A stretch of 64,000 nucleotides of DNA from a virus (lineage: Duplodnaviria > Caudoviricetes), in the IMG/VR virus record IMGVR_UViG_3300009108_000480, one strand, 5' to 3'. This document shows, piece by piece, positions 5,205 to 43,368 of this stretch; position 1 is the first letter of the stretch, and each line of letters starts with the position of its first letter. The position numbers were made by a program, and so were the translations under genes. A model generated the notes under the pieces. That model worked only from the letters and a program-made list of their open reading frames with translations. It did no database searches and was not told the DNA's origin.

Positions 5205-5212
5205 CATGAATG
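5198..5212 (+). promoter_or_regulatory. Late-type box TAAATA-ACATGA-ATG
   Basis: 14 of 15 nt identical to 11891-11905. Confidence 0.5.
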
Positions 5213-6367
5213 TCACGCAAACTACTAGACAAAAATTTCTGTGTATTACCTTGGACAGGTTTTCAACTAGAACCTAACGGTATAGTAAAAAACTGCATCA
5301 TTGCTGAAGATACTATTGGCAATATACATCAAAATAGCATAGAAAACATTCTTCAATCAAAAAAGAATCTTGAGATTAAAACTCAAATGCTAAACAAAGA
5401 ATTTCCAAGTAATTGTAAAGGTTGCTATTTTCAAGAAGAAAATCGAGCAAAAAGTTTTGAAAGTATTAGTAGTCGACTATATTATGCAAAAGAATTAGGT
5501 CCGCACATTAGCAATAACTTATTAGATGATAAAAATAACTTTGATTTAAGTCATGTAGATCTTAGATGGAACAATAAATGCAATCAAGCCTGTGTTTATT
5601 GTAACTCTGATTACAGTAGTAAATGGGCACAAGAATTAAACATTAAACAAAAATTTGAAAAGAAAAATGTTGAAAAAGTAAAACAATATGTCTTTAAAAA
5701 TATTAAAAAATTAAAAAACATTTATCTTGCTGGAGGTGAACCTTTGCTTATGAACGATAATAAGGAGTTTCTAGAATTATTATTAAAACAAAATCCTGAT
5801 ATCCATTTAAGAGTAAACACAAATTTAAGTTCTACAGGAACAGGAGTGTTTCAATTGTTATGTCAGTTTAAAAATGTTCATTGGACTATAAGCATAGAAT
5901 CCATAGAAGAAGAATATGAATATATTAGATACCATAGTTCCTGGAATACTTTTTTAAAAAATTTACAACACATACAAACACTTAATCATAGAATTAGTTT
6001 TAATATGTTACATTTTATTCTAAACTATAAAAGCATTTTTAATTGCGTTGACTATTTAAAATCGTTAGGCTTTCACAACAATAATTTTATAATTGGACCA
6101 CTGTATGGACCTTTATTTTTGAACATTAAACATTTACCACAAAAAATATTAAATGAAGTTATTAATATTCTTAAAACCAAAATTAACGAAAAACCAGGAT
6201 TTTACCTACAAAATAGTTTGGAAAATATACTGAAGTATTTGACTGAACCCAATTTTTATGCTAATATAGAACTAGTACGTAGTAGAATAAAAAAAATGGA
6301 TGAGAGACGAAATTTAAATAGTAGGAAAATATTTCCAAAATTATATAAGGAAATGTTTAATGAGTAA
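5210..6367 (+). CDS. Radical SAM protein with N-terminal twitch/SPASM-like domain (#1)
   Basis: N-terminal FCVLPW...C...CKGC, core CNQACVYC, GGEP, NTN. Confidence 0.9.
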   Translation: MSRKLLDKNFCVLPWTGFQLEPNGIVKNCIIAEDTIGNIHQNSIENILQSKKNLEIKTQMLNKEFPSNCKGCYFQEENRAKSFESISSRLYYAKELGPHISNNLLDDKNNFDLSHVDLRWNNKCNQACVYCNSDYSSKWAQELNIKQKFEKKNVEKVKQYVFKNIKKLKNIYLAGGEPLLMNDNKEFLELLLKQNPDIHLRVNTNLSSTGTGVFQLLCQFKNVHWTISIESIEEEYEYIRYHSSWNTFLKNLQHIQTLNHRISFNMLHFILNYKSIFNCVDYLKSLGFHNNNFIIGPLYGPLFLNIKHLPQKILNEVINILKTKINEKPGFYLQNSLENILKYLTEPNFYANIELVRSRIKKMDERRNLNSRKIFPKLYKEMFNE

Positions 6368-6527
6368 ATGTAATTGTGGAAGATCACCTACAGGACTTTG
6401 TGTTGGTTGGCATTCTTTAACTGAAGAAAAATATAAAGAAAAGAAAAAGAAATATGAAAAAATGGAAGAAGAAAAAAAGAAAAAGAATCCCTTTCATGCA
6501 AGAGCAATTGATGGGTTTGGAGAGTAA
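6360..6527 (+). CDS. 55-aa CDGSH-like Fe-S/zinc-finger protein (absent from ORF track)
   Basis: My translation is MSKCNCGRSPTGLCVGWHSLTEEKY...GFGE*. ATG overlaps the radical SAM 3' end; the stop abuts the next ATG (TAAATG). Confidence 0.7.
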   Translation: MSKCNCGRSPTGLCVGWHSLTEEKYKEKKKKYEKMEEEKKKKNPFHARAIDGFGE

Positions 6528-7700
6528 ATGAAAATATTTTACATGGGCCTAGAGCCATACGAAGGCAGATATACATTACAATTAACTGATTGGACTGAAC
6601 GGGCTTTCAAAAATAGAGGTATCGATTATGTTATAGTACCTGGTACTACTATCGATGATTCCAAAGCAATTGTAACAGGACAAGTATTAGATGCACATGG
6701 ACGTTCATATTTTGGTATGAGTCAAATGATGAATTTAGTACAAATGATGAAAGCTGGTGAAATTACATCAAATGATATTATATTTTTTGAAGATATGTTT
6801 CAACCAGGTATAGAATCGTTACCATACATTATGAATCAATCACCAGCAGAATTTAGACCAAAAGTTTGGATAAGATGTTTAGCACAATCAATTGATCCTG
6901 ATGATTTTATACACGTATGGGATATGAGCAAATGGATGAGCTTATATGAAGCGATGTGCAATGAATTTGTAACAGGTGTATTAGCAACTAATGAAGAAAT
7001 GGTTGCACATATGAAAATTGCAAATTGGAAAGCACCAATTTATAACATATCAGGATTAAGTTTTGGCAAAGAAGAAGTACAAAATAGAGTAAAAGATATT
7101 AAACCTTTTGAAGAACGAACAATGCGAGTTGTTTTTGGTGCAAGATGGGATCAAGAAAAACAACCAGGTTTCTTTATGGATATGATTGACCATTGGCAAC
7201 AAAATAAAAAATTGCCTCCAGTTGAATTTTGTATCTGCGTAGGTGGACCTTTAAGAAGTAATAACAAAGTATATGTAGACAGGGCAAGACGAATGGAAAA
7301 AGAAGGCACACTTACAATATATGAAAATTTAAAAAAGAATCAATATTACAACATACTTGCAGATTCAAGAGTATTATTTAATTGTGCGTTACAAGATTGG
7401 ACATCCAATACTGTATCAGAAGCAGATTCATTAGGTTGTAATGTACTATTTCCAGCATACAGAACATTTCCTGAAGTTTTTGCAAACGACGAAACAAGAA
7501 TGTATGTTCCGTGGAGTGGCAGAGATGCAATGGAAAAACTAAAAGTATTATTAATGAAACCATCCCCTAGTATGGGTCAAATATCTGATTGGACTGACGG
7601 TACAATAGACAGAATGATTGACATTATGACAGGCACGGGAGAACAATGGAGAAGAGATGGAAAACACTACAGAACACCAGTTTCCGAATCTAAATATTAA
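6528..7700 (+). CDS. GT-B (GT4-like) glycosyltransferase
   Basis: 'ARWDQEKQP', 'LFNCALQDWTSNTVSEADSLGC' (Ex7E-like region), 'YRTFPEVF'. 390 aa. Confidence 0.75.
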   Translation: MKIFYMGLEPYEGRYTLQLTDWTERAFKNRGIDYVIVPGTTIDDSKAIVTGQVLDAHGRSYFGMSQMMNLVQMMKAGEITSNDIIFFEDMFQPGIESLPYIMNQSPAEFRPKVWIRCLAQSIDPDDFIHVWDMSKWMSLYEAMCNEFVTGVLATNEEMVAHMKIANWKAPIYNISGLSFGKEEVQNRVKDIKPFEERTMRVVFGARWDQEKQPGFFMDMIDHWQQNKKLPPVEFCICVGGPLRSNNKVYVDRARRMEKEGTLTIYENLKKNQYYNILADSRVLFNCALQDWTSNTVSEADSLGCNVLFPAYRTFPEVFANDETRMYVPWSGRDAMEKLKVLLMKPSPSMGQISDWTDGTIDRMIDIMTGTGEQWRRDGKHYRTPVSESKY

Positions 7701-8691
7701 ACCAATTGGATCCTGTGTATTAGTAACAGGAGGAGCTGGATATATTGGCTCACACACCTGTAAAATATTAAAGAAAAATGGATTCACTCCAATAACTATT
7801 GATAGACATATTGAAAGGTTTGGTCATGCAACATTTGGCCCACATTTTCAAGTTGACCTACCTAAAAATCAAAGTTATCTAAACGAAATAATTAAAAGAT
7901 ACGATATACAATCTTGCATACACTTTGCTGGTAGTGCCTCAGTTGGTGAATCTGTAAAAGATCCAAGCAAGTATTATAAAAATAATGTAATAACTACAAT
8001 GGCTCTGCTTGATCAATTAGTACAAAATAATATTAAAACATTTATATTTTCATCAAGTGCGGCTGTATATGGCGATCCCGGAAATCGAAAATGTAGAGAA
8101 GATCGCGGACCAAATCCAATTAACCCATATGGTGTTACAAAATTAATAGTAGAAAGAATGCTTATGGATTATAAAACAGCATATGGCATTTCATCGGTAA
8201 GTTTAAGATATTTTAATGCCGCAGGTGCTGATCCAGAGGAAGAAATTGGAGAATCAAGAACCAAAGAAACTCATTTAATTCCATTGGCCATTAACGCATC
8301 AAGACAATTAAAAACATTTTATATAAATGGCGATAAATTTCCTACAGAAGATGGAACGTGTGTAAGAGATTATGTTCATGTTATGGACCTAGCCGACGCA
8401 CACATTAAGGCTTTAAATTATGCAAATAAAAATTCAGTATGTGAACAAATTAATTTAGGATCAGGTATACCTATTTCTAACAAACAATTATTAGACATCA
8501 TACAAAAACATACCGGTAAAATGGACATAATTGTAAGAGATGGTAGACAAGGAGATCCGGCATATCTTGTAGCTGATATTTTCAAAGCTAAAAAAATATT
8601 AAATTGGTCTCCTACACAAAGTTCTATTGACAATATAGTGGCAACTGCTGTAAAATGGTATAATAAAATACATAAAAAAGAAATACAATAA
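7657..8691 (+). CDS. galE: UDP-glucose 4-epimerase
   Basis: VTGGAGYIGSH, HFAG, SSSAAVYG, YGVTK (YxxxK), LRYFNAAGA, CVRDYVHVMDLADAH. Confidence 0.93.
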   Translation: MENTTEHQFPNLNIKPIGSCVLVTGGAGYIGSHTCKILKKNGFTPITIDRHIERFGHATFGPHFQVDLPKNQSYLNEIIKRYDIQSCIHFAGSASVGESVKDPSKYYKNNVITTMALLDQLVQNNIKTFIFSSSAAVYGDPGNRKCREDRGPNPINPYGVTKLIVERMLMDYKTAYGISSVSLRYFNAAGADPEEEIGESRTKETHLIPLAINASRQLKTFYINGDKFPTEDGTCVRDYVHVMDLADAHIKALNYANKNSVCEQINLGSGIPISNKQLLDIIQKHTGKMDIIVRDGRQGDPAYLVADIFKAKKILNWSPTQSSIDNIVATAVKWYNKIHKKEIQ

Positions 8692-9404
8692 TGGATGATA
8701 CATTAAAAGATAGTTGGGATAATACACATGATCCAATTAGCAAACAAATAAAACAAAGAATTAAAAAAGCAGGAAAAAGATTTCACTGTAATGATAATAT
8801 TTCTGAATACATTGAAGATGGTGATTTAGAACAATTACAAGCAGAAGTACAAGAAAAATTACAAGGTGTATTAGAAAGTCTTGTAATTGATACAGAAAAC
8901 GATCACAATACACAGGAAACTGCAAAACGTGTCGCTAAAATGTATGTACAAGAAACATTTGGTGGCAGATATAAACCGTTTCCGAGAGTTACAAGTTTTC
9001 CTAATGTGGGTTACAAGAGTATGTACACTAGTGGTCCAATTAGTATTAAGTCAACGTGTGCTCACCATTTACAAAATATTGTAGGTAATGCTTGGGTAGG
9101 TATTATTCCAACTGGCAAAGTTATTGGTTTGAGTAAGTTTAACAGAATTATACATCACATTGTAGAAAGACCACAGATACAAGAAGAAATGACAACACAA
9201 ATTGCTGATGCATTAAAAGAATACGCACACACAACTCATATTGCAGTAGTAGTTAAAGCAGAACATCATTGTATGACACACAGAGGCGTAAGAGAACAGG
9301 AATCTGATATGACAACTGCAATTATGTTAGGTGCATTTAAAGATGACCCAGCAACTAGAGATGAATTTTATAAAATTTGCATGAGCATGAAGGGCCATGC
9401 ATAA
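8691..9404 (+). CDS. folE: GTP cyclohydrolase I
   Basis: ETAKRVAKMY, STCAHH, GLSKFNRI, RPQIQE, EHHCMTHRGVR. Confidence 0.95.
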   Translation: MDDTLKDSWDNTHDPISKQIKQRIKKAGKRFHCNDNISEYIEDGDLEQLQAEVQEKLQGVLESLVIDTENDHNTQETAKRVAKMYVQETFGGRYKPFPRVTSFPNVGYKSMYTSGPISIKSTCAHHLQNIVGNAWVGIIPTGKVIGLSKFNRIIHHIVERPQIQEEMTTQIADALKEYAHTTHIAVVVKAEHHCMTHRGVREQESDMTTAIMLGAFKDDPATRDEFYKICMSMKGHA

Positions 9405-11889: not shown

Positions 11890-11890
11890 T

Positions 11891-13054: not shown

Positions 13055-13743
13055 GAGACATAGGCATTTATTATAAAAGTTCTACTTGCGGTATGTTCCT
13101 ATTATATTATATTTTAGGATCAGATCAAAAATTTAATGTGACTTCACGTAATCAAGATCTTAACTATGGTACTAATAAAAAATTAATGACCTCGATGTTC
13201 TATACACAATTTAAACCTAAAAAATATGGCGAGTGGATTAGTGGTGAATATTGGCCAGATAATTTGTTTGCTGACAACCATTTACCAAAATTTTATTACT
13301 TTCAAATACACGATTTTGCTCCACACCAAGATTTTAAAGAAAAATTTCGAATAAATGACTTATATAAAAAACTCGACTGCATAAAAATTAATCCTTATGT
13401 TGCTGATGATAGCAAATGGTTTAAACTAATGTTCTATAAAAGATCTGGATCATTTCATGATTTCCCAAAACAAAATTTTACTTTTAAAGAATTTTACCAA
13501 CGATTTAAATTTGTATTATCAAGAAGTAAAGGCTCCAAATTAGATTGGTGTGATTATAGCTTTGATATCTTAAAATTTTTAGTGGATAAAGAAGAAAGAC
13601 AACGTTTATGTGATTATATAGGTATTACAATGAACGAAAGGATGGAGGAATTTTTAAATTATTATATAAAGGCTCATGAAGAATGGCTACTTAAAAAATT
13701 ATATAGTGATGATGTAAAACGACCAACTGGAGTAATAAAATAA
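13051..13743 (+). CDS. Hypothetical protein (sulfotransferase-like N-terminus), paralog A
   Basis: ATGA overlap at 13051. N- and C-termini are nearly identical to the next gene. Confidence 0.75.
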   Translation: MRDIGIYYKSSTCGMFLLYYILGSDQKFNVTSRNQDLNYGTNKKLMTSMFYTQFKPKKYGEWISGEYWPDNLFADNHLPKFYYFQIHDFAPHQDFKEKFRINDLYKKLDCIKINPYVADDSKWFKLMFYKRSGSFHDFPKQNFTFKEFYQRFKFVLSRSKGSKLDWCDYSFDILKFLVDKEERQRLCDYIGITMNERMEEFLNYYIKAHEEWLLKKLYSDDVKRPTGVIK

Positions 13744-14564
13744 TGAAAGATATAGGCATTTATTATAAAAGTACTTGTTGTGGTATGTTTGTATTGTATT
13801 ACATATTAGGTTCAGACCAAAAATTTAACGTAACTGCACGTAATAAAGAACTTGACTACGGTACTAATAAAAAATTAATGAACTATATGTTCTACAAACA
13901 ATTTCAAAAAACGCAAAAAACCAAAGGCATAACTGGTTGGACTAATGATGCCGAAAGGAAAGACCACAAAAATCGAGTTGGGAATTGGAAAGATGGAAAA
14001 TGGTGGAGCAATTGGACTAGTAAAGAATACTGGCCAGATAACACATTTAAAGACAATGATTTACCAAAACTTTGGTATTTTCAACTTCACGATAACGTAG
14101 AAAAACAAAGTGTTGAGTATTGGGATTACAGACAGAAAACAGAAGAAGAAATAAAAATAATTAGGGATTATAAAAATATTGATTGTATTAAACTTAATCC
14201 TTATGTTACGGATAAAAGAAAATGGTATAAAATGCAATATGCTAAAAGAACCGGAAGTTGTGGGAATATTCCAAAAAAAAATCCTACTTTTAAAAAAGTG
14301 CGTGATACTTATATAGATGGTTGGATTAAAGGTAATGGTGGAGCAACATGGCCATCTAAGTTAGATTGGTGTGATTATAACTTTGACATTCTTAAATTTT
14401 TAGTAGATAAAGAAGAAAGACAGCGTCTATGCGATTACCTTGGCATTACAATAAACGAAAGAATGGAAGAATTTTTAGTACATTATCTAGAATGCCACCC
14501 CGAAAAATTACTTAAAAAATTATACGGATCTGAAGTAGAAAGACCTATTGGTAAAACCATTTAA
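13743..14564 (+). CDS. Hypothetical protein, paralog B (tandem duplicate)
   Basis: Shared blocks DIGIYYKS..CGMF.LYYILGSDQKFNV and SKLDWCDY.FDILKFLVDKEERQRLCDY. Confidence 0.75.
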   Translation: MKDIGIYYKSTCCGMFVLYYILGSDQKFNVTARNKELDYGTNKKLMNYMFYKQFQKTQKTKGITGWTNDAERKDHKNRVGNWKDGKWWSNWTSKEYWPDNTFKDNDLPKLWYFQLHDNVEKQSVEYWDYRQKTEEEIKIIRDYKNIDCIKLNPYVTDKRKWYKMQYAKRTGSCGNIPKKNPTFKKVRDTYIDGWIKGNGGATWPSKLDWCDYNFDILKFLVDKEERQRLCDYLGITINERMEEFLVHYLECHPEKLLKKLYGSEVERPIGKTI

Positions 14565-14581
14565 TTAAACTTAAAAGTGTA

Positions 14582-14642: not shown

Positions 14643-15305
14643 ATGTTAGATTTATTAAAAAACGTAGACAAAAGTATGCTGTGGAAACTTGTAGCACTTC
14701 ACGTTATCGTGATTACAGTTTCAAACGGTTTAGTAAACATTCCTGTAGAAATACTTGGAGTTAAACTAACCTGGGCGGCATTCACTTTCCCTTTAGTAGT
14801 AATAGCAACTGACTTAACAGTCAGACTATTGGGTAAAACGATAGCACGGTCTACAATTGCAATAGCCTATCCACTTGCGATCATTGGATCCATTTTGGTA
14901 GTGCTGGCAGAAGGAGCACCTCAATCAGTTGCGTTAAGAATTGGTTTTGCAAGTGCGACTGCGTATGCAATTGGAACTTTGCTAGATGTATATGTCTTCC
15001 AATGGCTGAGAGAAAATTATTCAGCTTGGTGGTTAGCACCTGCAGTATCAACTGTGGTAGCAAACATAATTGACACATACACATTCTTCTTTACAGCATT
15101 CTCAGGTGGCGCCAACGAGTATATGGCGGCTAACTGGGCAGAAATTGCCGGTTCACAAACTGTATTAAAAATTATGGTTGGTTTGATAGTATTCTTACCA
15201 GCTTATGGTTTATTACTTAGACATTTGTCGGGTAAATTTAAAGTTAGTGCAACTGTACAAAAAGCATTTAAAGATGCAAGTAAAGACCTAGTAAAATCAA
15301 AATAA
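14643..15305 (+). CDS. yhhQ: Queuosine-precursor (preQ0/preQ1) transporter, YhhQ/VUT family
   Basis: About six hydrophobic helices. 'TWAAFTFPLVVIATDLTVRLLG', 'RIGFASATAY', 'ANIIDTYTFFFTAF', 'QTVLKI'. Confidence 0.9.
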   Translation: MLDLLKNVDKSMLWKLVALHVIVITVSNGLVNIPVEILGVKLTWAAFTFPLVVIATDLTVRLLGKTIARSTIAIAYPLAIIGSILVVLAEGAPQSVALRIGFASATAYAIGTLLDVYVFQWLRENYSAWWLAPAVSTVVANIIDTYTFFFTAFSGGANEYMAANWAEIAGSQTVLKIMVGLIVFLPAYGLLLRHLSGKFKVSATVQKAFKDASKDLVKSK

Positions 15306-32936: not shown

Positions 32937-33397
32937 GATTCTTCGTAATATTTGTAATCTTCCTCCCAGGTAGGATCGTTGTTGTTCTTATTATGATTGG
33001 TCTTTAGAAACCATTTCAATACAGGTGTATCAAATTTTAATTCCCAATATCCTTTTGGCCCAAAAAACAAACAAGAATCAATCACAGAGTCTTTAGTAAC
33101 ATATCTGCTCTCCCATATCAAATGTTGCAAATCGATCCCGTCTATAGTTAATTTTTCTAATTCAAAATTTAGATCTTGTTTAATTTTATTGTTATCATCT
33201 AAAATAGTGTCCTTGTTCCCTTTGTTTTCAAAAAATATTCTTAAGACATTGTTCTCCTGCGTGTCTGCATCTAAAACTATTCTTCGCTCTACTTTACCAA
33301 CACAAATATCATTACTATTAAGTTCTATTCTGCAAATTGGATACTTGTTATTAACAGGATTAATATTTTTAAACTTAAATTCAAAATTTACTGACAT
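32903..33397 (-). CDS. Hypothetical protein
   Basis: Coupled to the carbamoyltransferase end. Confidence 0.7.
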   Translation of the reverse strand: MSVNFEFKFKNINPVNNKYPICRIELNSNDICVGKVERRIVLDADTQENNVLRIFFENKGNKDTILDDNNKIKQDLNFELEKLTIDGIDLQHLIWESRYVTKDSVIDSCLFFGPKGYWELKFDTPVLKWFLKTNHNKNNNDPTWEEDYKYYEESCQILNKIQIK

Positions 33398-34842
33398 ACC
33401 TTTACTCCATATTTGTAGGTAAATGCATTGGCATCTTCGATGTCATTTACCATCGGTTGCCCCTTAATATTCAAACTAGTATTTAGAAGCATTGGGCACC
33501 CTGTCTTTTTTTTCCATGCTTTTAACAGCTCATAAAACCCTTCGTTATCGCTTTTAGACACGGTTTGCACACGGCTTGAGTTATCATAGTGTATAATGGC
33601 AGGACAGTCTTTACCATGCGTGTACGCCGCTGTAAACTGCATATAAGGGGTATTTTTTACGGGGGTTGGGAGAGCAAAATAGTCATTTACATCCTCTTCT
33701 AAAATAGCCGGAGCGAATGGTCTAAATTTCTGTCTTCTCTTAATTCGATTTACCATATCCTTAATCCCTGGACCTCTCGGATCAGCCAAAAGCGATCTAT
33801 TACCAAGTGCTCGTGGTCCGAACTCTGCTTTACCATTTGCAACTCCACAAATTTTACTTTCTGTTAATTCTTTTATAATTGCATCAACTGGATATTCACT
33901 TTTAATGTTATAACCTAAAAATGGATTTTTCCAATTTAAATGTTTTTGTTCTGAAGCCGCAATACATCCTATTGAAGATCCTGCATCACCCGGATTAGGA
34001 ATAATCCAAATATTATCAAACAATCCCATATTAGCAAGTCCTGAATTAGCTACACAATTTAATGCAACACCTCCTACATAAACTAAATTTTTACTACCAT
34101 ACTCAGATGCTCTTTGCCATAAATTTGCAAGACATTCTACAAGAACAGCTTGTACTGATGCGGCAAGATCAACTGGATCTGCGCCGGCGTGCCAATTACC
34201 TATACCTTGATGTAAGTTTTGTTTTAATTTAAAAGGACCTTGCTGAACAAAATCTTCATATATATCATCTTTATAATCTGGTTTTCCATATGCCGCCATT
34301 CCCATTAAAATATATTCTTCTTCTGCAGGTTTTAATCCACAACGTTGTGTAAATGCAGAATACAATATTCCTAATGAATGCGGATACCTTATAGTTTCTT
34401 TCCGTTCAATTTTATTTCCTTTTGCAACTGATATAGACACTGTATCCCATTCTCCAATTGCATCAACTGTAAGAATTACTGCTTCTTTAAATGGTGATGT
34501 AAAATATCCTGCCGCGGCGTGTGAATTATGATGATTTACATATTCATCAATTTTAATTCCAAACCTATCCAAATTCCATTGTGGCATTTCTGTATAACTT
34601 AAAGCATCACTATATTGTCCTGCATATAGTTGTCTAGTTTTCTTTAACAAAGGTTTTTCATAATAAACAACTTTATCAAACGGTCCATATGTTTTTGCTT
34701 CGTCAACAATTGCTTGATTTAAGAAATGATCATTTTTAATTCTTGAATAACGTTCTGAATGTGCGGCCCACAGAATTTCTCTGTCGTCTACTACTGCCAT
34801 TGCGGCGTCATGGTTCATGCAATTTATTCCTAATATCCTCAT
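33388..34842 (-). CDS. Carbamoyltransferase (NodU/CmcH family)
   Basis: HDAAMA, HHNSHAAAG, DAIGE, GGVALNC, PGDAG, EFGPRALGNRS, RQKFRPFAP, LNTSLN. Confidence 0.95.
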   Translation of the reverse strand: MRILGINCMNHDAAMAVVDDREILWAAHSERYSRIKNDHFLNQAIVDEAKTYGPFDKVVYYEKPLLKKTRQLYAGQYSDALSYTEMPQWNLDRFGIKIDEYVNHHNSHAAAGYFTSPFKEAVILTVDAIGEWDTVSISVAKGNKIERKETIRYPHSLGILYSAFTQRCGLKPAEEEYILMGMAAYGKPDYKDDIYEDFVQQGPFKLKQNLHQGIGNWHAGADPVDLAASVQAVLVECLANLWQRASEYGSKNLVYVGGVALNCVANSGLANMGLFDNIWIIPNPGDAGSSIGCIAASEQKHLNWKNPFLGYNIKSEYPVDAIIKELTESKICGVANGKAEFGPRALGNRSLLADPRGPGIKDMVNRIKRRQKFRPFAPAILEEDVNDYFALPTPVKNTPYMQFTAAYTHGKDCPAIIHYDNSSRVQTVSKSDNEGFYELLKAWKKKTGCPMLLNTSLNIKGQPMVNDIEDANAFTYKYGVKVCQ

Positions 34843-35276
34843 ATGCTATGACGTCCTATTAATTGAAATTTTTCTGTTATATCATTCTTAATCATAAATG
34901 CCCACATATCTGCATCATAGTGCGTTACTATAAAATCTGGATTTTTTGGTTCTTCAAACATTTGATTTGTGTCTTCAAATCTTCCTTTTTTAATCGTATC
35001 CATCCAAATTGTATAACTGGCATTAAAATCGTTTCTAGTACGTTCTGTTGGGCAAATAAAATCTGCTACAACAATTCTATTATCATTTGCGGCTTCTTGT
35101 GCTAATTGTTTCATTCTGTTTGCTTGTCTTACTCTACCTTCTGCAGAAAAATCAAAATCGTTTGCTTCTTTTCTTACCTCATCGGCATTTAAATGAACTG
35201 CCATTAGCATTGGTGCTAACTTTTTTGCTAATGTGGTTTTTCCTGATCCCGGTAATCCCATTATTAATATTTTCAT
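34839..35276 (-). CDS. Adenylyl-sulfate kinase-like P-loop protein
   Basis: MGLPGSGKTT, 'LNADEVR', 'DFSAEGRVRQ', 'ADFICP', 'FEEP'. Short CysC-like protein. Confidence 0.75.
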   Translation of the reverse strand: MKILIMGLPGSGKTTLAKKLAPMLMAVHLNADEVRKEANDFDFSAEGRVRQANRMKQLAQEAANDNRIVVADFICPTERTRNDFNASYTIWMDTIKKGRFEDTNQMFEEPKNPDFIVTHYDADMWAFMIKNDITEKFQLIGRHSI

Positions 35277-35381
35277 TTATTTGTATATAAAAGGGTCTTT
35301 TTTCTTTAGTTCTTTTAATCTTTTACGATAAGCAAATTCTTGCTTAATCTTTTTGATTAAATTTTTTAACCAACTAAACAT
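35277..35381 (-). CDS. 34-aa basic micro-protein (absent from ORF track)
   Basis: MFSWLKNLIKKIKQEFAYRKRLKELKKKDPFIYK*. SD GGAGG upstream; stop abuts the next ATG. Confidence 0.7.
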   Translation of the reverse strand: MFSWLKNLIKKIKQEFAYRKRLKELKKKDPFIYK

Positions 35382-36198
35382 TTTTTCCTCCTATTATTTC
35401 TTTAAACTTAGGTAACATTAATTTTACAGCATCTAGGTGTGCTTTGTCTAGCGGATGTGTTACCCCTTTTTCATATTCATTTAACGTTGCCCACTGGTTA
35501 AATCCCATCATTCTTTCACCAAAACTAAACCATTTGGTAAAATCTATTTCATTATATAATGCTTTCATAAACGAATCCTTCTCACTATGTAAAGTCATTT
35601 CATCATAAAACAAAGTATTATCTGCAAGTGTAAACATAAATGGAATTTTTTTCTTTTCCAATAAATTTTGCAACCAAATAATTGATTTCCAACTCAAATA
35701 TAATTCATGATATTCGTTAGCCGCATTTTTATATAACGAATTTGCAAAATCACTTACACCAGTATTTTTTAATAAATCTCTTCTATGTTTCCATACTTCT
35801 TGTTGTGGTTCCGATCCTGATAACTCTCTAAATGCTTCGGCTTCACCTTGTACTGTATCCCATGGTGTTATTGTTGCCCAACGAGTATTTTCTAAATTTT
35901 TATGCCTTGGCATTGCCCAATCATACCGTGATAAAAATGACCACATTACAGCAACTCCAGTAATATCTTTTAAATTTCCTACGGCGTTAAAAACTCTACG
36001 AGCAATTCCTGTATTACCAGAACCTGGCCTTGCTGTACAAACATAATCGTCAGGCTGACAAAGATTTAATTCTTGACTTAAAATGTATGCCCAACTTTGT
36101 TTAGATGGTGTTTTACCTTCGTTATCATCTGACAATTCATGTCCAAATGTAAAACTACAACCGCCTGCTATAAATTTTTTTACAACTTTTTTATTCAT
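35374..36198 (-). CDS. SGNH-like protein
   Basis: AGGCSFTFG, ARPGSGN, C-terminal 'THP'. Confidence 0.65.
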   Translation of the reverse strand: MNKKVVKKFIAGGCSFTFGHELSDDNEGKTPSKQSWAYILSQELNLCQPDDYVCTARPGSGNTGIARRVFNAVGNLKDITGVAVMWSFLSRYDWAMPRHKNLENTRWATITPWDTVQGEAEAFRELSGSEPQQEVWKHRRDLLKNTGVSDFANSLYKNAANEYHELYLSWKSIIWLQNLLEKKKIPFMFTLADNTLFYDEMTLHSEKDSFMKALYNEIDFTKWFSFGERMMGFNQWATLNEYEKGVTHPLDKAHLDAVKLMLPKFKEIIGGKNV

Positions 36199-37357
36199 AA
36201 ATTTTTAATACTTTATTTAAAAGTGGAAAAACATCTCCAAAATTTTCTTCTCTATACTTGTCTGTTTGTAAAATACGTTCTTTTCTTTGTTTTTGTATTT
36301 CTCTAGAATCTCTATGTGCTGAATTCATAAATCTTAATGTAGGTTTAAAATCGTTTAAATCTGAATAACGTGAATTTACAATATTTTTTATTTGTTTTGG
36401 TAATGTTTGAATATTAAAATAATCCGGATCAAAACAAGTATTAACATAAAAAAATGTTGGTTCAAATTGTCTTACCCATAATGCAATTTTTGCCAAACTA
36501 AAAATGTTAAAAATACTAATTGTTGTACAAATTTGAAATTCCATATTTGCTAATTGATATACTTTAAATTGATTTAGATTATAATTTACTTCTTTCCAAT
36601 TTGCAGGATGTCTTTGGTATTGAAATTGTTCTCCTACATCATCAATACTAAACGCAATTTCAACTCTTTTAAAATGTTTCCACAAATCAAAAATTTCTCT
36701 ACCCGGGTAATGTGTTCCATTTGTATTATAATGTATATCTTGATTTTTAGCATACCCTTTTTCAACACAATGTTCTAATATTTTAAAATGATTATGTATC
36801 ATAAAAGGTTCTCCGCCTGTGAATTCAAAATATTCTACATCTTCTAATACTTCTTTTATATCATCAAAAAATTGTGGATTCTTTTTAGGCCATCCACCTT
36901 CTGTTAAGTGCTTTCTTGCAACTGGATTTTCTCCATAGTCTAATTCTTCCTGTGCCCATTTACTAGAACTCCAACTACCACATATTCTACATTTTAAATT
37001 ACATACATTTCCTAACTTAAAATCTATAAATTTTAAATTTGTTTCACTGTCTGGTGTCCAGTCTTTTAAACTATGTTTCATTTTGTAAAGTGAATTCATA
37101 CGTTTACTAATCTTTCCAGCACTTTCTTCTTGCCAACAACTTTGACATCCTATCGGTTTTTTACCGTCTTTAAATTGTTGTCTTAATTTTTCCATATACT
37201 CTGAATTCTGTATTGTTTTAAGATTTGTTTCATATACCTTATAATTTGGAATAGTACCTTTATACAAACAACAAGGCGATGCTGAGCCATTTACGTCAAT
37301 TTCTAAACTAGTCCACGGCAACGGGCAAATGTTTGATTTTATATACTTGTCCACCAT
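36191..37357 (-). CDS. N-terminal-twitch radical SAM (#7)
   Basis: ICPLPW..PCC..CQSC, core CNLKCRIC, TGGEP. Confidence 0.9.
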   Translation of the reverse strand: MVDKYIKSNICPLPWTSLEIDVNGSASPCCLYKGTIPNYKVYETNLKTIQNSEYMEKLRQQFKDGKKPIGCQSCWQEESAGKISKRMNSLYKMKHSLKDWTPDSETNLKFIDFKLGNVCNLKCRICGSWSSSKWAQEELDYGENPVARKHLTEGGWPKKNPQFFDDIKEVLEDVEYFEFTGGEPFMIHNHFKILEHCVEKGYAKNQDIHYNTNGTHYPGREIFDLWKHFKRVEIAFSIDDVGEQFQYQRHPANWKEVNYNLNQFKVYQLANMEFQICTTISIFNIFSLAKIALWVRQFEPTFFYVNTCFDPDYFNIQTLPKQIKNIVNSRYSDLNDFKPTLRFMNSAHRDSREIQKQRKERILQTDKYREENFGDVFPLLNKVLKIYE

Positions 37358-38664
37358 TCTAATACCTTTTTATTTTTACCTAATATTTTTTTAATATCTG
37401 TTCCTCTAATTCTATCTAAATATTCTAGATGTTTTTTTCCTTCTCTAAGACCTTCCCAATACAATTTTGTTGAATATTTTTCTTGATTGGTTGGGTGCGA
37501 TTTTAAATCTTTTAATCCTGCAAAAAAAGCCATATTAAAAACATTAGGCTTATCTGTAATTTTATTTTGCACTTCTGACACTATTTCTTCTAAAATATCT
37601 CTTGGCAAACACAAAGGACTTAACAAAAGATCATTAGTGAAACTAAAAACTTTTTTACACAATAATGGTACTTTTAATTCCTTACTTAATTTATACATAT
37701 TTTCTAAATCAAATAAACCCGGCAATGTAACAGTTAAATCTAATTGTAATTGCCGTGGATGCTTAACAAATTTTCTGGCATACTGCATATTTTTAAACCA
37801 TTGTTTATAATCTAATCCTGTTCTAATATATTCTCCAATTTCTCCTGTACCGTCTATTGATGCATTAATTTGCCAATCTTGAAAATGTATTAAACAATCA
37901 TCAAATAAATTTTTTCCATAAAAGTCTATTCTACTCATATTAGAATTATATCGTGCAAATACACTATTTGCATAACCTAACTCTACAACCCTCTGCATAG
38001 CTGTCCAATGTATCTTCCACATTAAAGGTTCACCACCACACCAATAAAATTCTTTAATTCTTTTTTCTTCTATTGCTTCTGTAAATTCTTTAACTACTTG
38101 TTGATCATGAAATTTTTGTAATCTTTCTTTAATATCTTTCCTTCCCCAAATTCTTTTGTTTTCATAATCTACTGTTCCGTGCTTTTTATTTTCTGCCTCC
38201 CACGTGCTTGATAACATATCACCACACATTCTACAACTAAAATTACATAAATTTGAAAATCTATAATCGAAACTAGTAACTTTCATTTGTGTATGCCCTG
38301 TTTCATCGGTTTTCTCAAATGCTTCATTTATTTGATTGGAATACATTCGATTAAAATGCTGTCTATATACGTTTGCATTTAAAAGTTTATAATTACAAGT
38401 TTCACACTGTGGTATTTCTTTTCCTGCCATTAAATCTTTTCTAACACCCTTCATATAATTAGAATTCCAATGTTCTTCAAGAGTAGGCAAATTTAATTTA
38501 ACACTACCGTCGGATTCTTGCTTATCAATATACTGCTTAAAGTTTGTAAATCCTTCCAAACTAGCACAACACAACCTTCTTTCCATTTGTGGTGACAAAT
38601 ACGTATGCACCCATGGTGCCATACAAAATGTTTTATTTCCTTCAGAAGGTTTATTTCTTTTCAT
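37339..38664 (-). CDS. N-terminal-twitch radical SAM (#6)
   Basis: FCMAPW..LCC..CETC, core CNFSCRMC, CGGEP. Start taken at MKRNK (38664). Confidence 0.9.
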   Translation of the reverse strand: MKRNKPSEGNKTFCMAPWVHTYLSPQMERRLCCASLEGFTNFKQYIDKQESDGSVKLNLPTLEEHWNSNYMKGVRKDLMAGKEIPQCETCNYKLLNANVYRQHFNRMYSNQINEAFEKTDETGHTQMKVTSFDYRFSNLCNFSCRMCGDMLSSTWEAENKKHGTVDYENKRIWGRKDIKERLQKFHDQQVVKEFTEAIEEKRIKEFYWCGGEPLMWKIHWTAMQRVVELGYANSVFARYNSNMSRIDFYGKNLFDDCLIHFQDWQINASIDGTGEIGEYIRTGLDYKQWFKNMQYARKFVKHPRQLQLDLTVTLPGLFDLENMYKLSKELKVPLLCKKVFSFTNDLLLSPLCLPRDILEEIVSEVQNKITDKPNVFNMAFFAGLKDLKSHPTNQEKYSTKLYWEGLREGKKHLEYLDRIRGTDIKKILGKNKKVLEWWTSI

Positions 38665-39943
38665 ACTTGTTAAATAACTCCTTCCATTCTGGAAATACAT
38701 CTAGTGTTTTTTCGTTCCTAATTTCATCATATTTTCGTGTTTGTGCAAAATGTAAATCCAAATGTTTTTGATTATCTGTTTTAAACATCCAATTTAATGC
38801 TGATTCAAACCCTTTAGTTGCCCTTGTTAATGGGTCTTTATCTTTTAACCATTTCATATGTGCATCATACTTTTCTTTTACTTGCTGTTTAAACTCAGGT
38901 GGAAGTAAATCTATTCTTTGCCAAGTAGGATGTTGTAATAAATTATAATTGAAATCTTGTGATTTAATTAATCCTTGTTCTACCCAACTTTTATGAAAAT
39001 CACAAACGTGTAAAGAATTAACTAAACCAACAGTAGAACTTATATAAAAATCTACTTTAGGACAAACTTCCATCATTCTTTTTCTATTAGCAACAATATC
39101 TTTCCATACAGTACCTTTACGCATTAATTCTCCACGTGGGCCTTCTGCATCTAAACTTGCACCAATTGAAACTGAATCAAATTTGTTCCATAGCTCAAAA
39201 ACATCTATGTCTTTAAATTTAGTTCTACTAAAATTAGTATTATAAATTAATCTTACGTGATACATTTTACGTTTATCTAATTCTTTTAATATTCTATAAT
39301 GTTCTTCCATAATAATTGGTTCACCTCCAGCAAAATAAAATTGTTCTGTGTGCTCAAATGATTCTAACATCTGTTCCCACAAATCGTTTGTATATCTACC
39401 AACTCTCATTATTTTTGCATGGGGAGGAGGACTACCTGTTAATTTTTTATGGTCTTCATACCAGTTAGAACTAAACCATGTACCACAACTTCTACAAGCC
39501 ATATTGCATAAGTTGGAAAAACGTATATCCCAATATTTCATTACAAAGTCAGCAGTACCGTCAGGTTGTGTTGAATCAACTAGTCCAATATTATGTCCAA
39601 AGTGCTTATTAGAACTTAAACGTAAACTAAAAAATCCTGATTTTTCTTGGTCATAACACTTTATACATTCACGTGATTTTTTATTATTCAACATTTTCAA
39701 ACGCATTTCTTTCATTTTATCATTATTAAAAACTTCTTTTAAACTTTGCTTGTTTAAATCACCTACTGGATAAGGATCAAAAGCAAAACAACAAGGATAT
39801 GCTCTACCATCTGGATATGCGTGAAGATGCATCCACGGTAACATACAAAATGATTCACTTTCTATTAACAACTCCTTTTGTTTAGGAGTCATATTTTTTA
39901 TTTTTAATTTCTCAGGCTCTTTTGCCCCGTACTCATATGCCAC
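38651..39943 (-). CDS. N-terminal-twitch radical SAM (#5)
   Basis: FCMLPW..PCC..CIKC, core CNMACRSC, AGGEP. Confidence 0.9.
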   Translation of the reverse strand: MAYEYGAKEPEKLKIKNMTPKQKELLIESESFCMLPWMHLHAYPDGRAYPCCFAFDPYPVGDLNKQSLKEVFNNDKMKEMRLKMLNNKKSRECIKCYDQEKSGFFSLRLSSNKHFGHNIGLVDSTQPDGTADFVMKYWDIRFSNLCNMACRSCGTWFSSNWYEDHKKLTGSPPPHAKIMRVGRYTNDLWEQMLESFEHTEQFYFAGGEPIIMEEHYRILKELDKRKMYHVRLIYNTNFSRTKFKDIDVFELWNKFDSVSIGASLDAEGPRGELMRKGTVWKDIVANRKRMMEVCPKVDFYISSTVGLVNSLHVCDFHKSWVEQGLIKSQDFNYNLLQHPTWQRIDLLPPEFKQQVKEKYDAHMKWLKDKDPLTRATKGFESALNWMFKTDNQKHLDLHFAQTRKYDEIRNEKTLDVFPEWKELFNKYEKK

Positions 39944-41279
39944 GGTACCATTCTCCTATAATTGGGAAAGTTTTTTCAAAATTCTTTCCTCTTCTTTTAT
40001 CATATTGTGTATAAAATGTTTTAAAATCTTTTCTTAACTTATCAACTGATGCAGAATCCTTATGTGGAGTCTTCACAACATCCAAATAATCCACTAATCT
40101 TTGGACCTGATTAATTTCCATTTCCTCTAATAGCGAGCCAAATTGCCGTAAAAATTTTTCTAAATTCTGTTTAAACATATTACGCAAGTCGTCGGGTAGA
40201 ACTAAAGCACTTTGAAAGCTAGGAAATCTTAAAATATTTAAAGTAAAATTAAAAGGTATTCCATAATGCTTACAAGCACTTTCTTTTTGTTTAACAATTG
40301 TTTCTAAAAACTGTGGCAACGATTCTAAACATAAAGCATTAATGGTACACATATTATGAATTTGTGATGGCACACGATCTTGCATCATGTTAACAACTTC
40401 AACAAACCATTGTGAATAATTTAAACCATCTCTAATATATTCTGCTTGTTCGTTTGTTGCCTCCATTGATGTATATAAATGAAAGTTGTCAAAGTGTTTA
40501 AGTTTGGCTTTGAACTTTTCTATCATTTCACTTTTTGCCCCTAAATTGGAGTTTATAGCCAAACGCATATTTGGGTTAATTTTATCCTTTTGTGTCTCAA
40601 ACCAATCTAATAATCGCCATAAATTTGGTGACATCATTGGTTCTCCACCTGTAATTCTTAATTCATCTAAACTTTTATGCAAATCTGTCTCCCACCATTT
40701 GTAAAATGCTTCTACATATGGATTTGCTTCATCTTTTTTATATGGTTCTGCAGAATCGTGTGCATGAGTAAAGTGATTACGCCCATCTGTTGTTAAATTT
40801 TTATATGGACCTTTATATTTGATGTCATTTGCCCACGTTGTACTAAATGCAGGATTACAATATGAACAAGCAAAGTTGCAAGTTCTATCAAATGCAATTT
40901 CTAAAGTTTTTAAATTATAATCTGTTTTATAATCTGTTCTAAATGCATCATCTAATGCCATATCAGAATAAATTTTTGATTTATATACTCTATCTGATAT
41001 TGCATCTCGTCCTATGTCTTCAATTTTCCAACAATATTCACATCCTGCAGGTCGTTCTCCAACTTGCATTTGTCTTCGTTGTTCTTTTTTCTGTTTTGTA
41101 TTGTGTATTGCAGAAGGATTTGTTTTTATTTCTTCCAGATTAATTGCGTGTGGCAATGGATGGTGACAAGATGTTGTTTGTCCTGATCCTAACCATATAG
41201 TCGCATTGTACCATTTAGCCGCACAAAATGATGCTGACTTTGTATCTAGTTTTTCTTTTTTAAATTTAAGGTCTTCCAT
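39933..41279 (-). CDS. N-terminal-twitch radical SAM (#4)
   Basis: FCAAKW..SCHHP..CEYC, core CNFACSYC, TGGEP. Confidence 0.9.
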   Translation of the reverse strand: MEDLKFKKEKLDTKSASFCAAKWYNATIWLGSGQTTSCHHPLPHAINLEEIKTNPSAIHNTKQKKEQRRQMQVGERPAGCEYCWKIEDIGRDAISDRVYKSKIYSDMALDDAFRTDYKTDYNLKTLEIAFDRTCNFACSYCNPAFSTTWANDIKYKGPYKNLTTDGRNHFTHAHDSAEPYKKDEANPYVEAFYKWWETDLHKSLDELRITGGEPMMSPNLWRLLDWFETQKDKINPNMRLAINSNLGAKSEMIEKFKAKLKHFDNFHLYTSMEATNEQAEYIRDGLNYSQWFVEVVNMMQDRVPSQIHNMCTINALCLESLPQFLETIVKQKESACKHYGIPFNFTLNILRFPSFQSALVLPDDLRNMFKQNLEKFLRQFGSLLEEMEINQVQRLVDYLDVVKTPHKDSASVDKLRKDFKTFYTQYDKRRGKNFEKTFPIIGEWYRGI

Positions 41280-42001
41280 TCTTTTAATTTCCTATATTCC
41301 TCTTCTGGTGGTTCTATGTCACTTTTAAAAATAATATCTTTAACCCATTTATAATGTGTAAATGGTAACGGATGTAGATCACTTTTTTCTGCAAATTGTT
41401 CAGGATATAATTCATAAGCAAAGTCATCTAATCCACCAAAGTCTTTATAAAATATAAACTTACTCCAATCAATTTTATTGTATAATGCCCTTTGTCCATT
41501 TGACATTTTATCTTTGTCGTGCATAATAATATGTCCTCGATAACACATCATTTTATATTCAATATTATGCTTTTCTAAATACATTTGTGTAAACAAAATC
41601 CTTTCAAGCATACGTACATCATTTTGCCTTTCGTTTTGAAACCAACGTACATAATATTCATGTTTGTCTTTAAAATAATGACCACCATAAAAAACATTCC
41701 AATTAAAGTCTGGATCCCAACGAGAATATGTAACAGTTTCATCTTTTTTCAAATCTTGGTCAATCTTATCGTGTACAATTTCATATCTATTTGTTCCTGA
41801 CCACATAATATAAACTTTCTCTGTACTACTCTTCCATTTATTAATAGCATTATAAACTGATCTCATTATAATTTCGTTAGAGTTACCTGCCGCTCCTAAA
41901 TTTTTTAAATCATACCCATTTTCAAACCATGATAAAAAGTTTGGCCAACATGGCCATTTATATTTTGTATAACTACAACCTGTTGTTATTATTTTTTTCA
42001 T
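41246..42001 (-). CDS. SGNH-like protein
   Basis: TTGCSYT, NLGAAGNSN, 'DLHP'. Confidence 0.65.
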   Translation of the reverse strand: MKKIITTGCSYTKYKWPCWPNFLSWFENGYDLKNLGAAGNSNEIIMRSVYNAINKWKSSTEKVYIMWSGTNRYEIVHDKIDQDLKKDETVTYSRWDPDFNWNVFYGGHYFKDKHEYYVRWFQNERQNDVRMLERILFTQMYLEKHNIEYKMMCYRGHIIMHDKDKMSNGQRALYNKIDWSKFIFYKDFGGLDDFAYELYPEQFAEKSDLHPLPFTHYKWVKDIIFKSDIEPPEEEYRKLKEWKTLNLKKKN

Positions 42002-43368
42002 AAGTTTTTACACTCCGTCCAAAATTCCGCCATTTCTGGAAACGTATTTTCAAAATGCGTTCCACGTCTGCGATCATGTTCGTTAAAAAATGCGTAAAAG
42101 TTCTTTTTATTTTGCGTATTATCGTTTTTATTATTGCGCCAATAAGCTAAATTGCGTAACATTTTTTGAATTTCAAAATCTTTGAATCCTCCAAACCCTT
42201 CATCTTCGCCAGAAAATTCTCTCATATATTCTATATTCGCTTTGTGTATCTCTTGATACGATTCTGGCAATAAAGTTATCTGTTGCCATGCTGGTTGTCT
42301 TAATAATGGTATGTCAAACCATACTCTTTGATACGTTTTTGAATGCTTTTCTCTTAACAAACGTATATCTCTTAATAAATCATTTAAACTAGTAACACTT
42401 AAATTATTATAGGTAATAATAAACGTTATAGAATTACGCACTGGTATACGTTCCAAAAATTCATCCACATTATCCAACATACGATTAAAATCTAATCCAT
42501 AACGTATGTATTCTGCTTTTTTGCCATATGCATCTACTGATACGAATTGCATCATATGTTCTACTGCTTCATTTAAACATATTCTTTTAACCATATCAAA
42601 ATACTTGTTTTTTAATTTTTCATCTGGTGGACAGAAATTTGACGTTACGTTTAAATGTAAATCGGGTTTAGGGTGATATGTAATGTATTCAAGTACTTCA
42701 TATGTATTTTTATCCATTAAAGGTTCACCCCCTGTCATTCTGAAATGTTTTAAATTTTTATATAACGTAGGCCACCATCTCCAAAATGCATCAACATATG
42801 GATTATGTTCTCTATGAGGAATAGGTCTACGTCTGCCAGTAAAATGTTCTGGAGCGTTGTGGGGAGGAGACGTTGGATATTGGCCATATACAGCAATCTC
42901 CTGTCCCCACGTGGTCGAGAATTGAGGTGAACAATAAGAACACTTGAGGTTACAAGCATTATTAAAATTAACTTCTACGTATCTCGGCGTCCATCCTGAG
43001 TCAATTGGTTTATTTTTAATCGACTCAAAATCTTGTATAGCCCATGGTTCACCTGAACGATACTGTCTATCTGACATTTGTCCAGTATCTTCTATATTCC
43101 AGCAATAAGAACATCCTTCAGGACGTTCACCATTGAGCATTTGTTGTCTTTGTTTTAATTTCTCCGGTGTATTATGTAATTCAGCAGGGTTACTATCTAA
43201 ATTTGTAGAATCTATTTGGTGCAAAGGTGGATGATAACAGCTATTTGTTAATCCTGTAGGCAGATGTAATGAAACTTGATTCCATTTAGCCAAACACATA
43301 GTAGGAGAAATTGTTTCTAATTTCTTTGCGGCAACTAGAGCATCTGATTTATAATCACTTTGTTTCAC
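41998..43368 (-). CDS. N-terminal-twitch radical SAM (#3)
   Basis: MCLAKW..SCYHP..CSYC, core CNLKCSYC, TGGEP. GTG start at 43368 with SD AAGGAG. Confidence 0.9.
   Translation of the reverse strand: MKQSDYKSDALVAAKKLETISPTMCLAKWNQVSLHLPTGLTNSCYHPPLHQIDSTNLDSNPAELHNTPEKLKQRQQMLNGERPEGCSYCWNIEDTGQMSDRQYRSGEPWAIQDFESIKNKPIDSGWTPRYVEVNFNNACNLKCSYCSPQFSTTWGQEIAVYGQYPTSPPHNAPEHFTGRRRPIPHREHNPYVDAFWRWWPTLYKNLKHFRMTGGEPLMDKNTYEVLEYITYHPKPDLHLNVTSNFCPPDEKLKNKYFDMVKRICLNEAVEHMMQFVSVDAYGKKAEYIRYGLDFNRMLDNVDEFLERIPVRNSITFIITYNNLSVTSLNDLLRDIRLLREKHSKTYQRVWFDIPLLRQPAWQQITLLPESYQEIHKANIEYMREFSGEDEGFGGFKDFEIQKMLRNLAYWRNNKNDNTQNKKNFYAFFNEHDRRRGTHFENTFPEMAEFWTECKNL

Follow-up and report, generated by a model that had tools for sequence, protein, structure and literature searches.

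Seven diverged N-terminal-twitch radical SAM paralogs in a phage genome are candidate sugar-tailoring enzymes

We analyzed a 64,000-nucleotide stretch of the IMG/VR virus record IMGVR_UViG_3300009108_000480 (Duplodnaviria; Caudoviricetes), hereafter the window, which comes from an uncultured marine jumbo phage and is AT-rich (~31% G+C) and densely coding. We found that it encodes seven paralogs of one radical S-adenosylmethionine (SAM) family, N_Twi_rSAM (NCBIfam NF033640), whose members carry an auxiliary iron–sulfur domain ahead of the radical SAM core. Because the surroundings of these genes, both here and in unrelated genomes, are made up of sugar and glycan genes, a glycan-tailoring line is the best reading of the array. 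Thus, we lean toward the view that the seven enzymes carry out radical tailoring of sugars in a glycan or glycoconjugate. The seven genes are as follows:

5210–6367, plus strand: N_Twi radical SAM paralog 1, 385 amino acids, NF033640 264 bits
11903–13054, plus strand: N_Twi radical SAM paralog 2, 383 amino acids, NF033640 293 bits
36191–37357, minus strand: N_Twi radical SAM paralog 3, 388 amino acids, NF033640 366 bits
37339–38700, minus strand: N_Twi radical SAM paralog 4, 453 amino acids, NF033640 307 bits
38651–39943, minus strand: N_Twi radical SAM paralog 5, 430 amino acids, NF033640 397 bits
39933–41279, minus strand: N_Twi radical SAM paralog 6, SC[HY]HP subtype, 448 amino acids, NF033640 304 bits
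41998–43437, minus strand: N_Twi radical SAM paralog 7, SC[HY]HP subtype, 479 amino acids as the longest open reading frame (ORF), NF033640 337 bits

All seven proteins matched NF033640 over model positions ~1–398 (E 1.8e-78 to 7.4e-119), scoring 264–397 bits against a curated cut-off of 170 bits, and a six-frame profile scan of the window returned exactly these seven genes plus one weak match at 18366–19253. This NCBIfam search thereby put a name to the N-terminal-twitch family of unknown function that a preliminary description, made from the letters of this DNA, had mentioned. Pfam PF04055 (Radical_SAM) also matched all seven and reached its gathering score in six, paralog 5 staying below it with 24.5 bits. 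Each copy has an intact CxxxCxxC and GGEP, and each keeps four cysteines ahead of the radical SAM core in the arrangement C-x17-18-C-x~40-C-x2-C; the preliminary description had reported both motifs and an auxiliary cysteine cluster ahead of the domain. A pattern repeated in seven copies is far beyond chance. The Pfam SPASM domain was detected at the N terminus (residues ~10–97) of copies 1, 2, 3, and 5, above its cut-off in copies 1, 3, and 5, while copy 2 scored 19.3 bits against the required 21.5. However, a two-cluster SPASM domain needs seven or eight cysteines, and only four are conserved in the auxiliary domain, both among the seven copies and in a set of 84 family members. We therefore rejected the two-cluster assignment, as four cysteines fit a one-cluster twitch domain.

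The copies fall into two motif subtypes, C..PW/PF..CC (with a single C in the copy at 5210) and C..AKW..SC[HY]HP. Two such subtypes had been described before, but the C[HY]HP form had been assigned to the third and fourth copies, whereas it belongs to those at 39933 and 41998. The lengths given earlier, 383–460 amino acids, also need slight adjustment, as the longest ORFs encode 383–479 amino acids; paralog 7, judged by its ortholog, probably starts at 43368, which would give it the ortholog's length of ~456 amino acids. Four copies are consecutive and overlapping (36191–41279), followed by a DUF6071 gene and then the fifth clustered copy, and a pair of paralogous SGNH-like genes lies at the array, in agreement with the clustering noted previously. 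Paralog 1 was also considered as a QueE enzyme and rejected, since it scored 33.8 bits with TIGR03963 against a QueE equivalog cut-off of 260. The N-terminal four-cysteine twitch, CxxxCxxC, and GGEP are all shared with NF033640, and no feature sets the seven paralogs apart from it. The family has no characterized member, and membership therefore confers no function.

The seven copies are only 21–24% identical to one another. In a tree built from the window copies and relatives from 22 other loci, each window copy fell into an orthogroup of its own, with orthologs on other contigs and maximal support (SH-aLRT, the Shimodaira–Hasegawa-like approximate likelihood ratio test, 100 each), which settles a question that the preliminary description had raised. 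Long stems separate the orthogroups, indicating that the duplications long predate the phages in this comparison. We found that the five clustered copies are 71–87% identical to their orthologs in L001, a syntenic Tara Oceans contig, with ratios of non-synonymous to synonymous substitution rates (dN/dS) of 0.10–0.24 (paralog 5, 0.10; paralog 3, 0.17 at 80% identity; paralog 4, 0.24), and that paralog 1 has a dN/dS of 0.25 against an IMG/VR ortholog; all these ratios are approximate, because dS is high (0.5–1.3). Relaxed selection, which the preliminary description had named as a sign against its reading, was not seen and is excluded by this range of 0.10–0.25. As judged from these alignments, the paralogs are under purifying selection and non-redundant.

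The orthogroup of paralog 1 takes in L021, L026, L028, and a broad set of T4-like contigs. In ~50–65 of ~76 IMG/VR contigs (L028–L100), which probably represent a T4-like lineage, its kept neighbors are gp32-like and RecA/UvsX-like genes and a short ORF resembling short-chain dehydrogenases/reductases, with a methyltransferase and a nucleotidyltransferase-cupin protein additionally encoded on some of them. The ortholog of paralog 2 (L021:15344–16522) was identified by tblastn and by the tree, whereas a pattern search of viral contigs for this paralog gave no match. Paralog 2 lies within a wider clade (SH-aLRT 82) that also holds copies from a bacterial O-antigen locus.

The strongest evidence for the sugar reading comes from gene order and gene fusions of the family elsewhere. 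We found a bacterial chromosome contig, which also bears genes for DNA polymerase III alpha and AccA, with four tandem family members in an O-antigen locus of the ABC-transporter type. In this locus, RmlC, RmlD, and Wzm are followed by Wzt with its Wzt_C domain, which is fused in frame to a family member, and then by three more members, a TylF methyltransferase, another methyltransferase, and a WbsX glycosyltransferase. Another bacterial member is flanked by an epimerase and a GT2 glycosyltransferase gene and, at its opposite end, by prophage recombination genes. In Bacteroidota carriers, GT2 genes adjoin the array or lie close to it, and a search for Wzm in four Bacteroidota carriers found no exporter adjoining the arrays. 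Two metagenomic fusion proteins point the same way. In P0261, a radical SAM protein that is sister to paralog 6 (47% identity) is joined to a GT2 domain, and in P0210, one that is 42% identical to paralog 7 is joined to a homolog of the gene preceding copy 7 in the window, at 43355–44248. By sequence homology, P0210 thus constitutes a Rosetta-stone link between paralog 7 and the protein encoded at 43355–44248. Larger versions of the same theme, seen in two metagenome contigs, exist outside this phage lineage. L106 contains at least eight Radical_SAM-annotated genes, five of eight scoring as family members with our profile, interleaved with four separate GT2 genes and a GT2 fusion. L107 has eleven Radical_SAM-annotated genes in a row, of which three score as family members, adjoined by an NTP-sugar transferase, a GDSL protein, and an asparagine synthase, and it also encodes B12-binding radical SAM proteins.

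In the window, copies 3–7 belong to a tightly overlapping minus-strand operon, which runs from 46408 down to 29464, directly behind tail-fibre-like genes. It begins with two proteins (44522–46091), the GT-A-like protein, copy 7, the DUF6071 protein, and copies 6, 5, 4, and 3, continues with an SGNH-like paralog, a 34-amino-acid ORF, an APS-kinase-like protein, and a carbamoyltransferase, and ends with two proteins without an assigned family, a DegT aminotransferase, and a 442-amino-acid protein, after which a convergent epimerase/dehydratase gene closes the cluster. The features of the operon and its borders are as follows:

46470–49104, minus strand: tail-fibre-like genes, immediately upstream of the cluster (matches to tail fibre and virion structural PHROGs)
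46415–46443, minus strand: sigma-70-like promoter match in the gap that lies upstream of the first cluster gene (TTGACT-17-TATAAT, 11/12, the best of the region)
43355–44248, minus strand: 297-amino-acid protein, candidate GT-A fold (homolog of the P0210 N-terminal domain, E 1e-14)
41246–42001, minus strand: DUF6071 protein, SGNH-like by motif (PF19547, 31.4 bits against a cut-off of 27)
35374–36198, minus strand: second SGNH-like gene, paralogous to the DUF6071 gene (26% identity to 41246–42001, E 2e-7)
35277–35381, minus strand: gene for a 34-amino-acid basic peptide within the cassette (AGGAGG upstream; the sole apparent gap in the operon)
34839–35276, minus strand: P-loop kinase, APS-kinase-like (PF01583, E 8e-12; PF13671)
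33388–34842, minus strand: NodU/CmcH-type carbamoyltransferase (PF16861, E 3e-53; PF02543, E 1e-46)
30782–31876, minus strand: DegT/DnrJ/EryC1 sugar aminotransferase (PF01041, E 1.5e-72)
29464–30792, minus strand: 442-amino-acid protein, C-terminal half paralogous to 43355–44248 (BLASTP E 2e-8)
28497–29498, plus strand: NAD-dependent sugar epimerase/dehydratase, convergent (PF01370, E 4e-39)

The gene at 43355–44248 overlaps the longest ORF of paralog 7 and abuts it if paralog 7 starts at 43368; from its predicted fold, the product is probably a GT-A-fold glycosyltransferase. The two genes at 44522–46091 had looked GT8-like by eye, an assignment that no tool confirmed. The SGNH-like gene at 35374–36198 had no match in Pfam, PHROG, or PDB sequences, and searches of PHROGs, NCBIfam, and PDB sequences gave none for most of the cluster neighbors. 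The promoter site is a consensus match only, as the total count of such matches was not above that in shuffled sequence. At the opposite end, the epimerase gene and the last cluster gene share a 35-nucleotide 3′ overlap (29464–29498), in which we found no terminator-like hairpin.

The order from the fibre-like genes to the carbamoyltransferase (49104–33388) is kept gene for gene in Tara contigs at 51–87% amino acid identity; this synteny of fibre genes and cluster holds in L001–L004, while the distal end of the cluster differs. By tblastn, the fibre-like genes match a baseplate/tail-pin protein of PA5oct-like phages. Two further minus-strand genes were observed in the tail region. One, at 49548–51629, encodes a 693-amino-acid protein among the tail genes with weak Hint/intein-type matches at residues ~397–494 (E ~5e-5, below Pfam cut-offs), and the other, at 55284–63998 and downstream of the tail-fibre-like genes, is a very large ORF of >2,900 amino acids that runs off the end of the window.

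An AlphaFold (AF2) model of copy 5 had a pLDDT of 94.3, and no close Swiss-Prot entry was found for it. Its matches among solved structures were BlsE (Z 12.9), CteB (12.7), anSME (12.5), SkfB (12.3), and viperin (11.5). The BlsE match had a root-mean-square deviation of 3.5 over 220 residues at ~15% sequence identity, and the structural matches as a whole (TM-scores 0.3–0.4, Z 8–13) covered the generic radical SAM core only. Thus, the predicted structure does not decide between a sugar and a peptide substrate. BtrN, HygY, and NeoN are twitch radical SAM enzymes acting on carbohydrates, and BlsE, DesII, and AprD4 are other radical SAM enzymes of sugars. All of these have in common with the window paralogs a radical SAM core, one auxiliary cluster, and a sugar-pathway context; however, the auxiliary domain of BtrN/HygY/NeoN-type enzymes follows the barrel, whereas that of the window paralogs precedes it. 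The SPASM peptide maturases (anSME, CteB, SkfB, SuiB, and MftC; Z 11.4–12.7) resemble the window paralogs by the Pfam SPASM match, but they carry two auxiliary clusters, while the window paralogs have one, together with a permuted domain order and a sugar-enzyme context.

Each paralog should hold a SAM-cleaving [4Fe-4S] cluster at CxxxCxxC and one four-cysteine auxiliary cluster on the twitch ahead of the barrel and, if the glycan reading is correct, would abstract a defined C–H hydrogen of a sugar residue by an oxygen-independent mechanism. By analogy with the carbohydrate twitch enzymes, which catalyze epimerization, dehydrogenation, deoxygenation, or bond formation, the outcome might be an epimer, a dehydrogenated or deoxygenated sugar, or a new C–C or C–X bond. 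The epimerase/dehydratase and the DegT aminotransferase could supply amino-sugars and the GT-A-like proteins could transfer them; the five radical SAM enzymes of the operon would then edit the sugars, and the carbamoyltransferase, the kinase, and the SGNH-like enzymes would finish the product. The preliminary description had spoken of a radical tailoring assembly line. The non-redundant copies, the purifying selection, and the sugar and glycan context bear this out in part.

Several observations weigh against the assignment to sugars. The structural neighbors of copy 5 are generic and effectively tied, the peptide enzymes CteB, anSME, and SkfB scoring as high as BlsE. The GT-A call for 43355–44248 draws on a model with a pLDDT of 67 and on weak GT2-like fold matches. 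The O-antigen locus (G106) is the one bacterial case of its kind, among carriers of which the others were covered in part, and the fusion partners of some relatives are TPR repeats or an S8 protease domain and not sugar enzymes. The cassette also contains the conserved gene for the 34-amino-acid peptide. In addition, a literature search found no tested activity for the NF033640 family and no paper devoted to it, and a search for N-terminal twitch/SPASM domains or radical SAM enzymes together with O-antigen or Wzt returned no relevant paper.

We infer the sugar substrate and the kind of chemistry from this context, and the acceptor from the make-up of the cluster. No membrane span was predicted in any cluster product, and genes for an initiating transferase, flippase, polymerase, exporter, or lipid-carrier transferase are absent from the phage cluster. 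With soluble products, no export or membrane functions, and a cluster that is kept by the fibre genes, a cytoplasmic acceptor is favored. Virion proteins, namely those of the tail fibres, are therefore our tentative first choice of acceptor, although we hold this part of the proposal with considerable doubt. The next option, which we consider unlikely, is that the same chemistry targets precursors of a host envelope polysaccharide (O-antigen or capsule) during infection, for example to block superinfection, with the use of host carriers and exporters. In its favor, the only clear bacterial context is the ABC-type O-antigen locus with its Wzt fusion, GT2 genes accompany the arrays of Bacteroidota carriers, and the best promoter-like site, being sigma-70-like, would suit expression by the host polymerase before assembly, which is a weak point. 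Against it stand the lack of the membrane and export functions listed above and the position of the cluster, which in related contigs stays directly behind the tail-fibre-like genes on the same strand.

The peptide gene raises a different alternative, in which the enzymes would modify a peptide or protein, either the 34-amino-acid peptide itself or a virion protein, by cross-links or epimerizations as in SPASM/twitch maturases, in the manner of RiPPs (peptides that ribosomes synthesize and that are then modified post-translationally). The ORF has a strong Shine–Dalgarno sequence. The window, L001, and L008 share the same 17 C-terminal residues, and the corresponding 17 codons of the window differ from those of L001 and L008 by 6–10 synonymous and 0 non-synonymous changes. 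Trp-4 is invariant, the C-terminal half is nearly so across the sequences compared, and the peptide contains aromatic-x-Lys motifs. A back-translated pattern of its last nine residues recovered 43 IMG/VR contigs with 35 distinct sequences; 34 of these 43 stretches carry a family radical SAM gene, usually ~800 nucleotides away and in the order radical SAM, SGNH-like gene, peptide, so that in dozens of contigs the ORF is found at a constant place, separated from the array by one gene. The structural neighbors CteB, anSME, SkfB, and SuiB, which act on peptides, and the family members fused to TPR or S8 protease domains are also in line with this alternative. However, the remaining nine stretches show no family radical SAM gene, even though five of them are 8–12 kb long, and no copy of the peptide turned up in those bacterial and mega-array loci of the family that were examined. 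Moreover, Pfam and NCBIfam detected no RiPP recognition element (RRE) or other leader-recognition domain in the paralogs, no such peptide is encoded close to paralogs 1 and 2, and the Wzt, GT2, and GT-A-like fusions and the sugar-nucleotide enzymes fit poorly. We therefore rate a RiPP-like system slightly below the host-envelope target. The peptide could be a RiPP-like substrate, an acceptor or carrier, an accessory protein, or an unrelated small protein.

It is also conceivable that the product of the cluster is a diffusible small molecule resembling an aminoglycoside or nucleoside and not a polymer decoration. A DegT aminotransferase found together with a carbamoyltransferase, a kinase, and twitch radical SAM enzymes is reminiscent of aminoglycoside pathways, in which BtrN and TobZ are enzymes of these kinds, and BlsE is the top structural match. 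Similar cyanophage genes were read as "antibiotic synthesis" in one paper (PMC12801897). Nevertheless, the cluster contains no cyclitol synthase, exporter, or resistance gene, and the Wzt fusion and the interleaved GT2 genes elsewhere point to polymers, which makes this explanation very improbable.

Paralogs 1 and 2 lie outside the operon, in the part of the window that contains the following features:

6528–7700, plus strand: GT4-like protein adjoining paralog 1 (Atlas matches to Glycos_transf_1 clusters, a lead only)
7657–8691, plus strand: GalE-like epimerase adjoining paralog 1 (PF01370, E 1e-49)
8691–9404: FolE
13743–14564, plus strand: candidate sulfotransferase/DUF2972 protein downstream of paralog 2 (weak Atlas lead)
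14643–15305: Vut_1/YhhQ-like transporter
18366–19253, plus strand: QueE-like radical SAM, an eighth radical SAM gene outside the N_Twi family (PDB QueE matches, E 2e-5)

Paralog 2 is located between an upstream GMP-reductase/IMPDH-like gene and the downstream protein with the weak sulfotransferase-like signal. Sugar sulfation is possible, given this lead and the APS-kinase-like protein at 34839–35276. The QueE-like gene, FolE, and the YhhQ/Vut_1-like transporter suggest, by sequence similarity, a partial 7-deazaguanine pathway; the candidate DpdA-like and QueD-like genes (2158–3600 and 3882–5204, plus strand) had no Pfam or NCBIfam match at E ≤ 0.001, and the DpdA-like gene had no PDB-sequence match either. 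That paralogs 1 and 2 serve DNA hypermodification with a sugar-decorated 7-deazaguanine is the least probable alternative of all, because the nearby deazaguanine-type genes and the GT4-like and GalE-like genes beside paralog 1, which speak for it, are offset by the rejection of paralog 1 as QueE, by the unmatched DpdA-like and QueD-like candidates, and by most other phages, which place the paralog 1 orthogroup by gp32-like, RecA-like, methyltransferase, and sugar-nucleotidyltransferase-like genes instead.

Returning to the family behind the proposed glycan-tailoring enzymes, a profile of the seven copies, run against 1.84 billion proteins, matched 7,544 representative clusters (50% identity) at E ≤ 1e-30. 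These came nearly all from phage metagenomes, and 33 of the top 150 were polypeptides with two or three family modules. When copy 5 was used, 6,355 of 8,000 scored candidates passed E ≤ 1e-5, with 78–93% identity among the 120 listed; the nearest ESM Atlas clusters were almost all viral. Close relatives of the cassette are present in seawater metagenomes from many studies, and among ocean phages this gene set is common. Bacteria rarely have the family: of 400 Pseudomonadota and 400 Bacteroidota genomes sampled, two and three, respectively, scored above the cut-off, besides two seed metagenome-assembled genomes (MAGs). Four MAG contigs (L005–L008, labeled Verrucomicrobia, Flavobacterium, Betaproteobacteria, and Rickettsiales) carry the phage cassette at 75–77% identity and are probably phage contigs mis-binned into MAGs, not bacterial members.

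Among cultured phages, tblastn matched only K566, K567, and RsoM2USA. Ralstonia phage RsoM2USA has two family members; in Vibrio phage K566, two exceed the cut-off and three narrowly miss it. Campylobacter phage CP21, PA5oct, and Atu_ph07 were tested and have none, and near and distant DNA searches for the block found no related cultured phage. The clamp and tail-fibre-like proteins of the window have only distant relatives, in the jumbo myophages PA5oct, Atu_ph07, and Vibrio phage 2.275.O. The marine T4-like environmental viral genome TARA_ERS488813_N000010 carries 12 radical SAM genes (PMC5332604), and Campylobacter phages CP220/CPt10 carry 11–12 (PMC2853527). These are, like the window phage, large phages with many radical SAM paralogs in modules; unlike it, Campylobacter phage CP21 lacks an NF033640 member. 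To call the array an undescribed system, as the preliminary description did, was thus an overstatement, since NF033640 is already curated and radical-SAM-rich phages are in print.

RNA data give at most a weak hint that the array is expressed, as DNA carry-over is possible. In the RNA library of the source study, we found a 264-nucleotide contig identical to 39075–39336 (copy 5) and a 708-nucleotide contig identical to 46821–47500 (fibre-like gene). Relatives at 88–95% identity occurred in two other studies. The metatranscriptome runs came from a single-gene search, with small shares; a search with the 7-kb block listed no RNA data set.

A more specific and rather speculative form of the glycan proposal, which we regard as unlikely though a little less so than the host-envelope target, is that the array, the glycosyltransferase-like proteins, and the 34-amino-acid peptide form an unrecognized pathway, in which the radical SAM enzymes would edit a glycan after its attachment to a protein or peptide acceptor and the product would decorate the virions of phages that abound in the aerobic ocean. 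If true, glycoconjugates would be the object of a new radical chemistry, and virions would bear a modification of a new class, one affecting host recognition or the evasion of grazing or immunity.

With ~7,500 clusters at 50% identity, N_Twi_rSAM is among the largest radical SAM families without a known function. The analysis adds several handles on it, namely the Wzt, GT2, and GT-A-like fusions, the conserved 34-amino-acid peptide, and two cultured carriers, K566 and RsoM2USA. That phages of the oxic ocean keep oxygen-sensitive iron–sulfur enzymes as seven diverged copies implies a strong selective benefit. Once the substrate is identified, new enzymology would become accessible and, possibly, a new layer of biology at the phage surface or the host envelope.

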